From a virus, in IMG/VR virus record IMGVR_UViG_3300031132_000002: 64,000 nucleotides of DNA; one strand, written 5' to 3'. The notes under the pieces are model-generated. The model had not been told where the DNA came from and searched no databases. It was given only the letters and a program-made list of their open reading frames with translations. Within the stretch, counting starts at the first letter, position 1. Each line of letters starts with the position of its first letter. This document shows, one piece after another, positions 6,271 to 13,902 of this stretch. Both the position numbers and the translations under genes were made by a program.

Positions 6271-6333
6271 GTATTGACAATAAGAAGGGAGGGTGTAGAC
6301 TCTCCCATATCAAAAACAAAGAGGAGAACAATT

Positions 6334-8037
6334 ATGGCTAAGCGCATTAAAAACCCACTGTTTAACACTGACGGCTACAAACCATCTCACATCGATCAGT
6401 ATGCCGATAATATGGATACGCTGTTTTCAAACTTCACTCCTCGTGGTGATAAGTATTTCACACACTACGCACCAAACGCACCGCGTGGCGTTATCTCTGC
6501 TGGTGTTCAGGGTGTTCTCAAAGAACGTCTGATTGACGACTGGAACGAAAACTTCTTCTCTCGTCCGAAGGATGAAGTGGTGGCTGAGTACTCGAAGTTT
6601 ATGACTCGTTACAACGGACGCCAGAACCGAACTGATCATATTGAAGCACTGCACGATTTGGGTTATCTGCCTCTATCAGTACGTGCGTTGCCGGAAGGTG
6701 TTCTGTGTCCTATCCAGGTTCCAGTGTATACAATTCACAATACCGTTAAAGGCTTTGCGTGGTTGGTGAACTATCTGGAAACTATGCTGAGTGCAGAAAC
6801 TTGGAAGACAATGAATAACGCAACCATTGCTTTCCAGTACCGCCTGCTTGGTGAACAGTACGCAGATTTGACCTGTGATTCTAAAGATCACCTAGCATTC
6901 CAGTTCCACGACTTCTCTGCTCGTGGTTTGTCTGGTATCGATGACGGATATCGCTCTGGCTTTGGTCACTTAATGTCATTCAAAGGTACTGATACTCTTC
7001 GTGCTGTTTGCTACGTAGATGATTTCTACTACGGAGAAGATACTTTTGTTGCTGGGAGCATTCCTGCATCTGAGCACAGTGTTGCAACAACTAATATTAG
7101 TGATATTCTCGCTAAACTGATGGTTGAAGTTGACGGCTTCGCAGCAATGAACATTGATGAACAACGATTCTTCTCTGAACTGGAGTTCTTGCGTAAATAT
7201 CTGACTCAGATTTACCCTGATGGCATTGTGTCTTATGTGGCAGACAGCTACGACTATTGGGCGCTGGTTACTGAGATCCTTCCAGTTCTGAAACAAGAGA
7301 TTATGGAACGAGATGGTAAACTGGTAATTCGTCCAGATAGCGGCAAGCCCCTGCATATTATCTGTGGATACTATGTTGAGACCTTTGCTTCTCGTGAGAT
7401 CTTTGAAAACTCAAGTCGTGCTCTTCTCACCGAAGTTGCATACATCGCAGATGAACAAGTTTACCTGCGTATTCAGGACAACGAGCAGTATGGTTACGAA
7501 GAGTACGTGGAGATTCCTCGTCACGAGGCCGTAGGTACTATCCAGGTGTTGTGGGAAGAGTTTGGTGGTAAAATCAACTCTAAGGGCTATAAAGAGTTAG
7601 ATTCTCATATTGGACTGATTTACGGCGATAGCATCACTGTTTCTCTGACCAAAGAGATCTTTAAGCGCCTGGAAGGAAATGGTTTTGCATCAAGTAACAT
7701 TGTTCTGGGTGTTGGTAGCTATACTTACAACTACAGCACTCGTGATACCTTCGGGTTTGCTTGTAAAGCTACAGGTTGTGTTATTGATGGTAACGAGATT
7801 CTTGTGAGCAAAGAGCCGAAGACTGATCCAGGTAAACGTTCTGCTCGTGGATTCTTAGCTGTTGTGGCAAATCCAGAAGGTGATTTGACTCTTGAAGATG
7901 GTTTGTCTTTGTCAGACGTTTCTCACCCTAAGAACGAATTGCTGGAAGTTTTCCGTGATAGTCTGATGGTGATTGATACTAATATTGATGAAGTACGAGC
8001 CACACTGGACGATACGGTACGTAAATATCTTAAATAA
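6334..8037 (+). CDS. nadV: nicotinamide phosphoribosyltransferase homolog (NARP1 Namat-like)
   Basis: TDGYKPSH, HDFSARG, PASEHS, VADSYD, IRPDSG, IYGDSI motifs; start moved to ATG 6334 after GAGGAG. Confidence 0.9.
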   Translation: MAKRIKNPLFNTDGYKPSHIDQYADNMDTLFSNFTPRGDKYFTHYAPNAPRGVISAGVQGVLKERLIDDWNENFFSRPKDEVVAEYSKFMTRYNGRQNRTDHIEALHDLGYLPLSVRALPEGVLCPIQVPVYTIHNTVKGFAWLVNYLETMLSAETWKTMNNATIAFQYRLLGEQYADLTCDSKDHLAFQFHDFSARGLSGIDDGYRSGFGHLMSFKGTDTLRAVCYVDDFYYGEDTFVAGSIPASEHSVATTNISDILAKLMVEVDGFAAMNIDEQRFFSELEFLRKYLTQIYPDGIVSYVADSYDYWALVTEILPVLKQEIMERDGKLVIRPDSGKPLHIICGYYVETFASREIFENSSRALLTEVAYIADEQVYLRIQDNEQYGYEEYVEIPRHEAVGTIQVLWEEFGGKINSKGYKELDSHIGLIYGDSITVSLTKEIFKRLEGNGFASSNIVLGVGSYTYNYSTRDTFGFACKATGCVIDGNEILVSKEPKTDPGKRSARGFLAVVANPEGDLTLEDGLSLSDVSHPKNELLEVFRDSLMVIDTNIDEVRATLDDTVRKYLK

Positions 8038-9987: not shown

Positions 9988-10167
9988 ATGATGAAACCAT
10001 ATGGACATACAGAGAAAGATAACTCTATCTGTGGTTGGGGTTGCTGCTTCCATCCTGACCGCACCCAGCGACATTGGACTTGTCGTAAGATAATTGATAA
10101 AGCCAAAAGAAAGAAAGCTCGTCGAGAAGGGAGAAAAGAGATTGACTTACAAAAGACATTCGAATAG
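9988..10167 (+). CDS. small basic Cys-containing protein
   Basis: GGAGG RBS before ATG 9988; ICGWGCC...KRKKARR. Confidence 0.55.
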   Translation: MMKPYGHTEKDNSICGWGCCFHPDRTQRHWTCRKIIDKAKRKKARREGRKEIDLQKTFE

Positions 10168-10363
10168 AATCAAAGCTAAATCACCTAAGAGAGTCTTAGA
10201 ATGGTGCGGTTGTGATCGTGCTCTTGTAGGCATAAATCAAAAATGTCCGGTATGTGGTGTAGTAAATGGAAATAAGAAGAAAAGATTTAAAAAACATATT
10301 GACTTCGATACCATTTCTGTAGTATAGTTACCTCACTGACCAACAAGGTTTAAAATAATATTT

Positions 10364-10440
10364 GCTCCGTTAGCGCAATTGGATAGCGCAAGAGATTTCT
10401 ACTCTCTAGGTTGGGGGTTCGAGTCCCTCACGGAGTGCCA
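10364..10440 (+). tRNA. tRNA-Arg(TCT)
   Basis: cloverleaf; AGAGA-TT TCT AC-TCTCT; encoded CCA. Confidence 0.93.
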
Positions 10441-10637
10441 GTTTGCGTCTGGTATATGCGTTGATTTAGAATTGTAGCGTTTGTAGACTAGCCTTCTTGT
10501 CGAGCACAATCTAATGAAATATACAAGCCATCGTTTTTAAAAGTTATTGTAACTTTTTGTTTTCCGATCATAGTAAGTAACCCCGCTTGCGGCGACAGAG
10601 GGGTACAATTTCAAATAATCATATAAGGAGAGACATA

Positions 10638-10814
10638 ATGGGTAAGAAAGTAAGCGCAGTAGATAAGATCATTCAGCCTTTCCAGTTTGAGAGCAAGTCT
10701 ACTCAGACCGAAAGCAAGCCAGTAGAAATGACCATTAACGGCGAAGTGAAGAAAGTGTCTCACCGTATCCGTACTGGTAAAACGAAGCGTGAACGCGCTC
10801 GCTCTGGTAAGTAG
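10638..10814 (+). CDS. small basic hypothetical protein
   Basis: AAGGAG RBS; MGKKVSAVDK...KRERARSGK. Confidence 0.65.
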   Translation: MGKKVSAVDKIIQPFQFESKSTQTESKPVEMTINGEVKKVSHRIRTGKTKRERARSGK

Positions 10815-10834
10815 TAAATAGTTTAAAATAGTTG

Positions 10835-10863
10835 TTGACAGATAATCAAATACGTGGTACATT
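10835..10863 (+). promoter_or_regulatory. promoter of main tRNA cluster
   Basis: TTGACA-17 nt-TACATT with extended TG. Confidence 0.7.
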
Positions 10864-10902
10864 GGTATTAAGTAGAGAAGATTGTTAGTTAACAACTACT
10901 TA

Positions 10903-11615: not shown

Positions 11616-11691
11616 GCTTGTATAGCTCAGTAGGTAGAGCAGTTGCCTTGTAAGCATCAGGTCACGAGTTCGATTCTTGTTGCAAGCACCA
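11616..11691 (+). tRNA. tRNA-Thr(TGT)
   Basis: GTTGC-CT TGT AA-GCATC; ACCA end. Confidence 0.92.
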
Positions 11692-11705
11692 AATTATCAA
11701 GCGAA

Positions 11706-11756
11706 CGCGCCTGATGAGTCTTTGAAATAAGACGAAACGCTGTGAAGCGTAGCGCG
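11706..11756 (+). ncRNA. type I hammerhead ribozyme
   Basis: CGCGC-CTGATGA-GTCTT(TGAAAT)AAGAC-GAAA-CGCT(GTGA)AGCG-TA-GCGCG: full consensus core, three stems, GUA cleavage triplet. Confidence 0.9.
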
Positions 11757-11882
11757 GAGTATCCCAAGAAGGGGAATAACTGGATACCAGTAGAGACTTC
11801 TCTAAGTATTTTCCAACGAGAATATTTAGAGCGTGGGTGTGCAATGTCTCTATATGCAGCACACAGCTAGCCCTTCAACATT

Positions 11883-11959
11883 GCGAGTTTAACTCAGTCT
11901 GGTAGAGTGTCTGCCTTCCAAGCAGTTCGTCATCGGTTCGAATCCGATATCTCGCTCCA
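11883..11959 (+). tRNA. tRNA-Gly(TCC)
   Basis: CTGC-CT TCC AA-GCAG; TCCA end. Confidence 0.92.
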
Positions 11960-11965
11960 AATTAT

Positions 11966-12053
11966 ATCGTGGTATACAAATTGGCCTAAGTAACCAGACT
12001 TTCAATCTGGCGCAGTTTTCTGCTTACGGGTTCGAATCCCGTCCACGATACCA
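11966..12053 (+). tRNA. tRNA-Glu(TTC) with atypical long variable arm
   Basis: CCAGA-CT TTC AA-TCTGG; variable hairpin GCAG-TTTT-CTGC; ACCA end. Confidence 0.82.
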
Positions 12054-12058
12054 AAAAA

Positions 12059-12130
12059 GAAGCTATAGTTTAATGCAAAACTTGTCACTTCCGAGATTGA
12101 CAAATGAAGATTTATCTTCTAGCTTCACCA
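12059..12130 (+). ncRNA. degenerate tRNA-like RNA (10-nt anticodon loop, no TTCG loop)
   Basis: GAAGCTA/TAGCTTC-ACCA; GTTT/AAAC; TTGTCA/TGACAA; GAAGA-TTTA-TCTTC. Confidence 0.6.
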
Positions 12131-12136
12131 AATTAT

Positions 12137-12283
12137 CGGATAGATGCAATATGAAAGTGCAGCGTTAGGGTTCGCAAGTTGGCGCTTGTTTGACTAACAA
12201 AACATAATTAGTATGGGCATTTCAAGAATACATAGCCTCGCCAAAGGAGATGTAAGAAGGTTCGACTCCTTCCTGTTCGCCCA
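12137..12283 (+). ncRNA. long tRNA-like RNA (147 nt)
   Basis: CGGATAG/CTGTTCG stem; GAAGG-TTCGACT-CCTTC T arm; CCA end; large insert. Confidence 0.65.
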
Positions 12284-12289
12284 AATGAT

Positions 12290-12472: not shown

Positions 12473-12540
12473 AAAAGCTTATTTACAACTCTAAGTAACT
12501 ATGCTATCATCCTTTTCATTACTAGAATAGGAGATGACGT

Positions 12541-12903
12541 ATGAAAAGTTGTGAGTATTGCAAGAAAGAATTTGAAGTAGTGCGAAAACACGGAGGAAAC
12601 AACAGAACATTTTGTTTTGATTGTGTTCCAGAAGGCTTAACCAAGAGCGAGAGAGCTAGAGTACATCAAGATATTCGTGGTATCAGATCTAAGCTTATGA
12701 AATTAGAATTAGGTTGTCACGTATGTGGTTATAAAAGATGTTCCGAGGCTTTAGAGTGGCATCACCCTACAAGTGATAAACTTCACGATCCTTCTAACGC
12801 TATTAAGAGATCTTGGGAAGCATATTTATTAGAGATTAAAAAGTGTATTCTTCTTTGCTCAAACTGTCACAGAGAAGTGCATTCAAATATTATCAGTCTG
12901 TAG
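12541..12903 (+). CDS. HNH homing endonuclease
   Basis: CHVCGY...ALEWHH...LLCSNCHREVH; own TTTACA-17-TATCAT promoter at 12482 and AGGAGA RBS. Confidence 0.85.
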   Translation: MKSCEYCKKEFEVVRKHGGNNRTFCFDCVPEGLTKSERARVHQDIRGIRSKLMKLELGCHVCGYKRCSEALEWHHPTSDKLHDPSNAIKRSWEAYLLEIKKCILLCSNCHREVHSNIISL

Positions 12904-13240: not shown

Positions 13241-13322
13241 AGCGGTATAGTGAAACGGACATATAGATCACACTAGGCTCATACCCTAGTAATTGCGGGT
13301 TCGACTCCCGCTACCGCAACCA
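13241..13322 (+). tRNA. tRNA with CAT anticodon (Met/fMet; 1:72 mismatch)
   Basis: CTAGG-CT CAT AC-CCTAG; long D loop; ACCA end. Confidence 0.85.
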
Positions 13323-13414: not shown

Positions 13415-13420
13415 AACAAT

Positions 13421-13565
13421 GTCGTAGTGATACAAAGCGAAAGAAAGATGGTTACGAGATACTTCCTCGACGGAGGTGGTGATGTGATTAATCGCTGGAG
13501 TAATGAGGATCACAGGTGGAGTTGATCGCCTTCTCTGAGAGGTTCGAATCCTTTCTACGATGCCA
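13421..13565 (+). ncRNA. long tRNA-like RNA (145 nt)
   Basis: GTCGTAG/CTACGAT stem; AGAGG-TTCGAAT-CCTTT T arm; GCCA end. Confidence 0.65.
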
Positions 13566-13571
13566 ATCAAT

Positions 13572-13652
13572 GCGTGGGTCACTAATCCTGGTGGTCAGGA
13601 GACGGCTTCCAAACCCGTTAGTTCAGGTGTTCGAATCATCACCTACGTGCCA
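13572..13652 (+). tRNA. tRNA-Trp(CCA), atypical
   Basis: ACGG(C)-TT CCA AA-(C)CCGT; G73-CCA; possible 8/4 acceptor/T stem geometry. Confidence 0.7.
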
Positions 13653-13657
13653 AATAT

Positions 13658-13733: not shown

Positions 13734-13872
13734 TATCCGCGCCAGCGGTGTAGATGTAAAAATCTACGGACACTTTATGTGTCCATCTTCGAAGACTAAT
13801 GCCTAGTTCCTTCAAAGAGTAGCCGAAAGGCAAGTTAGAGGGCTGCGACTCTTCAACGCAGGCAAAACTTAA

Positions 13873-13902
13873 GCCCCTGCCCTTTTAGGGTGGGGGTTTT
13901 TT
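13873..13902 (+). terminator. intrinsic terminator ending the tRNA cluster
   Basis: CCCCTGCCCT/AGGGTGGGGG + T6; near-identical stem at 23698. Confidence 0.85.

Follow-up and report, generated by a model that had tools for sequence, protein, structure and literature searches.

A candidate hammerhead ribozyme joined to a conserved knotted RNA within a phage tRNA array

The tRNA array and its transcription

The locus described here is located on the + strand of a 64-kb stretch of phage DNA (the window, which is the whole of the sequence analysed). Metagenomes from the phyllosphere and from plants contain DNA of this phage, and a search of GenBank phages revealed no relative close to it at the DNA level. 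The window carries an array of 17-18 tRNAs (ARAGORN, Rfam). A nicotinamide phosphoribosyltransferase gene (6274-8037, +; phrog_448, 3e-188) immediately precedes the tRNA region, and genes with tail-fibre-like, spanin-like and large-terminase products lie on the other side of the array. Between tRNA-Thr(UGU) and its downstream neighbour tRNA-Gly(UCC) are a hammerhead ribozyme motif and a conserved RNA containing two pseudoknots (Table 1). Only 14 nt separate the CCA of tRNA-Thr from stem I of the hammerhead, the 3′ trailer of the tRNA continuing into the ribozyme.

Promoter-like sites near 10142-10863 precede the array, the sole strong same-strand terminator (13871-13899) follows the last tRNA, and no terminator was detected between the array's promoters and 13871; co-transcription of the array and the intervening RNA is therefore likely. 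Among RNA-library contigs (Logan), which show no ends or strand and may derive from DNA, X18 (wastewater) covers 11708-11862 and X17 covers 11787-11898, and one such contig spans the predicted cut site uncut.

Several other features of the array can be recorded. An 18th tRNA (13241-13319, +) is detected by the Rfam tRNA model (52.6 bits) and is not reported by ARAGORN. tRNA-Glu(UUC) (11966-12053, +; ARAGORN) is, at 88 nt, unusually long for a tRNA-Glu, which suggests a long variable arm. An HNH endonuclease ORF (12541-12903, +; 120 aa; phrog_2255, 4e-21) lies between tRNA-His and tRNA-Pro within the array and may represent a homing-type insertion. Long non-tRNA spacers at 10441-10902, 12054-12289, 12473-12893 and 13415-13657, for which no match was obtained at the Rfam gathering threshold, may hold further structured RNAs.

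Table 1. Features of the interval from tRNA-Thr to tRNA-Gly, in window coordinates.
Feature	Position	Strand	Basis or remark
tRNA-Thr(UGU)	11616-11691	+	ARAGORN; Rfam tRNA 67.5 bits; CCA at 11689-11691
Stem I, 5′ strand CGCGC	11706-11710	+	Sequence, fold, covariation in relatives
Catalytic core CUGAUGA (C3-U4-G5-A6-U7-G8-A9)	11711-11717	+	CUGANGA invariant in 29 distinct ribozymes
Stem II hairpin, GUCUU 11718-22 / AAGAC 11729-33	11718-11733	+	Loop UGAAAU; closed by G10.1-C11.1
GAAA (G12-A13-A14 and A15.1)	11734-11737	+	Invariant in 29/29
Stem III hairpin, A15.1-CGCU 11737-41 / AGCG-U16.1 11746-50	11737-11750	+	GUGA (GNRA) tetraloop
Predicted scissile bond	11751/11752	+	A17 = A11751; position from hammerhead chemistry
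Stem I, 3′ strand GCGCG	11752-11756	+	Sequence
5′ tail GCGCGGA	11752-11758	+	Consensus NCGYGGA; kept in hammerhead-less members too
Helix A hairpin, GUAUCC 11759-64 / GGAUAC 11782-87	11759-11787	+	Loop contains strand B5 (GAAGGG 11768-73)
Helix B (pseudoknot 1), GAAGGG 11768-73 / CCCUUC 11871-76	11768-11876	+	98.0 % paired
Helix C (pseudoknot 2), UAGAGAC 11791-97 / GUCUCUA 11846-52	11791-11852	+	Latter strand in helix E loop
Helix D hairpin, 11800-10 / 11821-31	11800-11831	+	8/11 pairs compensatory; opened in permuted members
Helix E, GUGUGC 11837-42 / GCACAC 11859-64	11837-11864	+	100 % paired; invariant CGUGG junction precedes
3′ tail AACAUU, up to tRNA-Gly RNase P site	11877-11882	+	
tRNA-Gly(UCC), downstream neighbour	11883-11959	+	ARAGORN and Rfam tRNA model

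The hammerhead motif

A first-pass annotation of this DNA had claimed a complete type I hammerhead at 11706-11756 (+), and the letters, the minimum free energy (MFE) fold, and conservation and covariation in relatives all agree with that assignment. Three helices of 5/5/5 bp surround the core, with stem I open as in type I, and folding of 11700-11762 gives precisely the same three-way junction as its MFE structure (-19.7 kcal/mol, z -2.3). A strict descriptor (core, GAAA, U16.1, non-G17 and stems of at least 4, 3 and 3 bp) detects a single site in the window, that at 11706-11756, where 0.013 would be expected per window by chance (300 first-order Markov resamples). Cleavage by hammerheads leaves a 2′,3′-cyclic phosphate on the upstream product, here predicted to be on A11751, and a 5′-OH on the downstream product, here G11752.

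The Infernal search with Rfam models that had been suggested as a check was only partly favourable, with RF00008 matching the core under permissive filters at 29.1 bits (E 1.6e-4) and its gathering score of 48.5 not being reached; the hammerheads of relatives scored 24.7-28.7 bits against a gathering score of 34 (RF00163). At the gathering threshold the tRNA region returned tRNAs only and no hammerhead. This combination of significant E-values with sub-threshold scores is what would be expected of short stems in which the loop features of the models are missing. Since stem I of the window's copy is only 5 bp long, and a conserved loop II contact is not evident in the subgroup with the same strand order (the standard order; see below), the speed of cleavage at cellular Mg2+ is uncertain.

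Comparison of 29 distinct hammerheads of the family showed that C3, U4, G5, A6, G8, A9, G12, A13, A14, A15.1 and U16.1 never vary. Position 7, the one hammerhead core position that tolerates any base, is U in 19, A in 5 and C in 5, and position 17 is C in 15, A in 11, U in 3 and never G. The 10.1-11.1 pair is G-C in 26/29. Stems II and III diverge in sequence with pairing kept in 26-29 of the 29, stem III ranging from 3 to 6 bp with compensatory changes, and stem I covaries (CGCGG/CCGCG, GCGA/UCGC, CACGG/CCGUG), five pair types being found at 1.1-2.1. Conservation and covariation of this kind rule out a chance origin of the hammerhead and, as far as can be judged from sequence comparison, indicate selection for catalysis. 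Loop II is not conserved among the standard-order hammerheads.

The knotted RNA adjoining the ribozyme

Immediately after the predicted cut is a conserved RNA of ∼125 nt (11752-11876, +) with five helices, A to E, and two pseudoknots. It begins with the strand that the cut would free, the 3′ strand of stem I being its first five bases, and every one of ∼75 distinct relatives with a hammerhead has the ribozyme joined to this RNA. Its strands follow the order A B A′ C D D′ E C′ E′ B′, a nearly two-fold arrangement.

The fold was evaluated by counting base pairs in relatives. For helices A, B, C and E in 42 distinct members, most positions show 3-6 pair types, and none of 1000 shuffles was as good. 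Helix A is 98.4 % paired with up to five pair types per position, and helix C 93.5 % paired with 3-6, six of its seven pairs being compensatory; the three inner pairs of helix E have 3-4 types each, and helix B is found in the covariant forms GCCGGG/CCCGGC, GGCGGG/CCCGCC, GUUGGG/CCCAAC and CCGGAG/CUCCGG. In 19 standard-order members, 95.8 % of cells are paired and 23/36 pairs are compensatory, with 0/500 shuffles as good, and when partners were slid as a control pairing fell to 35-44 %. Around the helices are ∼40 invariant junction bases (NCGYGGA, GAAUAAC, CAG, CGUGGGY, CAA, GCAG and ACRKCU), and the loop of helix A also carries an invariant GAAUAACU. The knotted RNA is conserved more strongly than the ribozyme's own stems.

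No match to this RNA was obtained with Rfam 15 at E ≤ 10 across 11650-11900, and seven related loci gave nothing at E ≤ 1 except hammerheads and tRNAs. It was not called a tRNA by ARAGORN or by the Rfam tRNA model, and its supported fold has no T arm. A theta/HDV relationship was also sought: no HDV-family Rfam match was found at E ≤ 10, and the strand order differs from that of HDV. Nor did comparison with the HDV, glmS and xrRNA topologies reveal any likeness. In the literature searched, no published description of a composite of a hammerhead and this knotted RNA was found. As conserved and intricate as a riboswitch or ribozyme, it is nevertheless without an Rfam family.

Distribution and circular permutation of the family

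Apart from hits to tRNAs, BLAST of the tRNA region against GenBank phages identified four small phages whose similarity is confined to 11704-11880 and amounts to 73 % identity (Enterobacter phage SDFMU_EhYP, Pectobacterium phages Pappous and Taid, and Dickeya phage Setonix), and an exact 20-mer scan of prokaryote genomes gave no match. Pattern scans of IMG/VR, a metagenome collection and GTDB genomes, anchored on the invariant bases of the RNA, yielded ∼105 distinct copies from phages, prophages and metagenomes. Many of the phages that bear the RNA are unrelated. L024, L075, L077, L079, L080 and ∼100 further pattern matches were rejected as chance matches; the chance matches from the same scans, minus six true members, served as controls in the comparisons below. 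Genomes or MAGs with true members carry the labels Bordetella, Mycobacterium, actinobacterium, Bacteroidetes, Enterenecus, Armatimonadetes and Angelobacter, and phage, prophage and metagenome sequences containing the knotted RNA have been assigned to Proteobacteria, Actinobacteria, Bacteroidetes, Firmicutes and other phyla, so that the family is not restricted to a single phylum.

Two circular permutations of the RNA were detected. The standard order, that of the window, has the hammerhead first and a closed helix D hairpin. The permuted order runs from the D 3′ strand through E, C′, E′, B′, a linker, the NCGYGGA tail, A, B, A′ and C to the D 5′ strand. The linker is a complete hammerhead in ∼45 distinct permuted copies, with the predicted cut exactly before the tail; in ∼20 others it is 2-32 nt long and without a hammerhead, and the same 5′ tail is kept. 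When the linker is at least 12 nt long, it usually pairs with the tail in a hairpin of 4-6 bp (UCCGC/GCGGA), and the hammerhead looks like an elaboration of this hairpin, whose stem would have come to serve as stem I.

Helix D, which closes the permuted copies, is 14-19 bp long and differs in sequence in every lineage. With a duplex of this length the two halves would stay paired after cleavage, and the cut would therefore produce a nick and no release. Consequently, a free 5′ end does not appear to be a universal requirement of the RNA, given also the ∼20 members without a hammerhead. The ribozyme and the knotted RNA would thus form one structural unit, as opposed to a cutter beside a passenger.

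Hammerheads of the permuted members (e.g., L028, L031, L047, L054, L065 and L085) have a common loop II, (A/G)GUAACGC, not found in standard-order members, which could possibly pair with the NCGU bases preceding the invariant GGGY junction. L072 (A-U) and L081 (G-C) fit such a pairing and L074 breaks it; these changes, two supporting and one break, are too few for a loop II-junction pseudoknot to be claimed.

Some copies show a weakened or missing ribozyme. The permuted hammerhead of L008 (oriented ∼1140-1345) has a stem I of 3 bp and a 10.1-11.1 pair that is not G-C, and two permuted copies have decayed cores (GUAAAGA in L026 and CCGAUGA in L057), which suggests that the knotted RNA can outlast the loss of its ribozyme. 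L117 and L179 have the standard order without a recognisable hammerhead; upstream of their tail is ...AUCUUGCCCUCAC, a sequence similar to another copy's 3′ end, and the arrangement may be a tandem one.

Genomic context of the family

A same-strand tRNA is located at most 60 nt away in 16/105 members, compared with 1/103 chance matches (p 1.6e-4), and the neighbouring tRNAs are diverse (Thr, Gly, Met, Ser, Lys, Arg, Trp, Val, Pro, Leu and Glu). About 85 % of the family members are without an adjacent tRNA. Copies in lambdoid prophages lie in the late leader, between the Q antiterminator and the holin-endolysin-spanin genes, and a T7-like copy occupies the gap between the capsid and tail tubular genes. 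Many permuted copies stop 13-70 nt upstream of a start codon, and the genes that follow them vary, including those for RtcB, small terminase, portal-like and Mom-like proteins and others without assigned identity. No protein family common to the flanking genes of members was found.

In standard-order copies of the lambdoid and T7-like type, the flanks pair in an outer helix of ∼19 bp, termed P0 (ΔG -21 to -30 kcal/mol, z -5 to -9). P0 was sought in the window's copy and is absent there (ΔG -4.6, z +0.5), and tRNA-embedded copies in general tend to be without a long closing duplex. There appear to be two ways of setting the outer ends of the RNA, either by a long duplex, possibly a target of RNase III, or by flanking tRNAs that are cut by RNase P and 3′ tRNA enzymes.

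Proposed mechanism and alternatives

The hammerhead (11706-11751) and the knotted RNA (11752-11876) would together constitute one mobile RNA module of phages, transcribed in the window inside the tRNA polycistron. As the ribozyme folds, its upstream CGCGC would pair with the knotted RNA's initial five bases and the core would cut after A11751. The upstream product would then consist of the tRNA-Thr trailer and the ribozyme, ending in a 2′,3′-cyclic phosphate, and the knotted RNA would start with a 5′-OH at G11752. Cleavage by RNase P at the 5′ end of tRNA-Gly (11883), as expected from established tRNA processing, would set the 3′ end, giving an RNA of ∼131 nt that folds into helices A-E. We consider it probable that the hammerhead is the cis-processing part of the knotted RNA, generating its 5′-OH end at G11752, with RNase P at tRNA-Gly generating the 3′ end, and we infer that the cleavage occurs, that the 3′-end enzyme is the one named, and that the RNA accumulates and acts in trans. 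Of the two roles suggested in the first-pass annotation, generation of the 5′ end of the downstream RNA is the one upheld, by a fixed junction in ∼75 relatives; cutting of the tRNA precursor is not, given the ∼85 % of members without a tRNA. Breadth across phyla, sites in tRNA arrays and occasional linkage to RtcB point towards RNA processing or repair in preference to one host-specific defence system.

The linkage to RtcB bears on a second reading, in which the RNA nicks itself and the nick, with its cyclic phosphate and 5′-OH, is clamped by the knotted fold and mimics a nicked tRNA, acting as substrate, decoy or inducer of the RtcB ligase or the RtcR sensor. Nicked tRNAs have been proposed as activators of the Rtc operon in the part of PMC10159003 drawn on here, and the halves of the permuted members would indeed stay joined after the cut through helices B, C and the 14-19 bp helix D, as P0 would keep the ribozyme piece attached in the lambdoid and T7-like members. 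Four contigs have a same-strand RtcB gene adjoining the module, on its downstream side in L054, L089 and L176 and on its upstream side in L165; RtcB is also encoded ∼6 kb away in L026 and elsewhere on the contig of L025, and is present on 3/37 whole contigs. We regard this reading as unlikely all the same. The enrichment of RtcB in the flanks (5/111 members and 0/97 controls, p 0.06) is marginal, not significant and only a lead, the four abutting RtcBs share 61-89 % identity and may be one lineage, and no RNA-repair cassette beyond RtcB was found around L054 or L176. Most members are without RtcB, including G001, a near-complete 141-kb relative of the window's phage. Furthermore, both P0 and an open D helix are missing from the window's copy, whose ribozyme piece would be held by 5 bp only, and the hammerhead-less members cannot nick themselves. 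Were the self-nicking reading true, phages of many phyla would engage RtcB/RtcR, for example by switching on or occupying repair during nuclease attack on tRNAs; it would give a bacterial hammerhead a defined physiological role and represent the first phage RNA known to target RNA repair.

A cis-acting role, in which the knotted domain with its 5′-OH would protect or regulate the RNA downstream, for example against 5′-end-dependent decay, is suggested by the position of many permuted copies shortly before start codons (of RtcB, small terminase, portal-like and other genes) and of the lambdoid copies in the late-operon leader. It is improbable, as the downstream genes have no family in common and, in the window and at least 15 other members, a tRNA lies within a few bases downstream, where RNase P would detach the domain.

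Cutting of the tRNA precursor independently of host RNases, with the downstream RNA an incidental spacer, has in its favour the position of the ribozyme just after tRNA-Thr in a large array and the precedent of HDV-like theta ribozymes beside phage tRNAs (in the part of PMC10879173 drawn on here), but it is highly improbable, being contradicted by a distribution in which the ribozyme accompanies the knotted RNA and most members have no nearby tRNA, by a 'spacer' that outdoes the ribozyme stems in conservation and shows compensatory change in most of its pairs, and by the 60 nt and cyclic phosphate that would stay 3′ of tRNA-Thr and leave that tRNA not matured.

Relation to known RNAs

To our knowledge, hardly any of the hundreds of bacterial and phage hammerheads recognised since 2011 has an assigned job. 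For the module proposed here, a fixed conserved partner provides a concrete hypothesis, namely that a specific knotted RNA has its 5′ end produced, or nicked, by the hammerhead, and the presence of relatives in E. coli lambdoid prophages and a T7-like Enterobacter phage makes the system tractable. The association with tRNA arrays, and with RtcB in some phages, suggests a piece of phage RNA biology yet to be explored.

The window's hammerhead resembles the type I hammerheads of bacteria and phages (RF00163, clan CL00010) in its core, its junction open at stem I, its GUH triplet and its location at an intergenic site of a phage or prophage. It differs from them in that a ∼125-nt pseudoknotted RNA has the 3′ strand of stem I as its invariant beginning, in that the family also occurs circularly permuted with an internal ribozyme, and in scoring under the gathering thresholds. 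Hundreds of bacterial hammerheads, many near prophage genes, have been described (Perreault et al. 2011, PMC3088659); these flank genes, and none is described there as fused to a conserved RNA.

Theta ribozymes adjoin viral tRNAs and are linked to tRNA-based recoding in the part of Kienbeck et al. (2024, PMC10879173) on which we draw. As characterised in the same part of that paper, they have in common with the present motif that they are small self-cleaving ribozymes in phage tRNA regions producing 5′-OH and cyclic-phosphate ends (predicted ends in our case), while the present motif is of another class and fold, has a fixed non-tRNA partner and is found mostly away from tRNAs.

The encoding of one fold by two gene orders, with a processing site at the point corresponding to the termini of the alternative order, recalls two-piece tmRNA (RF04321/RF01849) and the permuted hammerhead types I-III. 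There is no sequence or structure similarity to tmRNA, and, in contrast to tmRNA, the junction is predicted to be cut by a built-in ribozyme and is left uncut in some permuted copies. Two natural circular permutations are, as far as we know, rare among RNAs.

Structured non-tRNA RNAs in phage tRNA regions include the T4 species 1 and 2 RNAs, and we know of no GOLLD, ROOL or T4 species 1 or 2 RNA with an integrated hammerhead. GOLLD and ROOL, likewise structured and not tRNAs, frequently occur near phage tRNAs (Weinberg et al. 2017, PMC5737381). Like these and the T4 RNAs, the knotted RNA is a structured non-tRNA RNA near phage tRNAs and presumably co-transcribed with them; GOLLD and ROOL are several-fold larger, and their Rfam models do not match here.

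Open reading frames over the knotted RNA

A minus-strand ORF at 11662-11862 (66 aa) is most likely no gene, since the stretch accumulates compensatory base-pair substitutions. A 38-aa 'hypothetical protein' is annotated over the knotted RNA in Pectobacterium phages Pappous and Taid (L002 3037-3153 and L004 3037-3153), and, as the stretch evolves by compensatory pair changes, it is very likely a mis-annotation.
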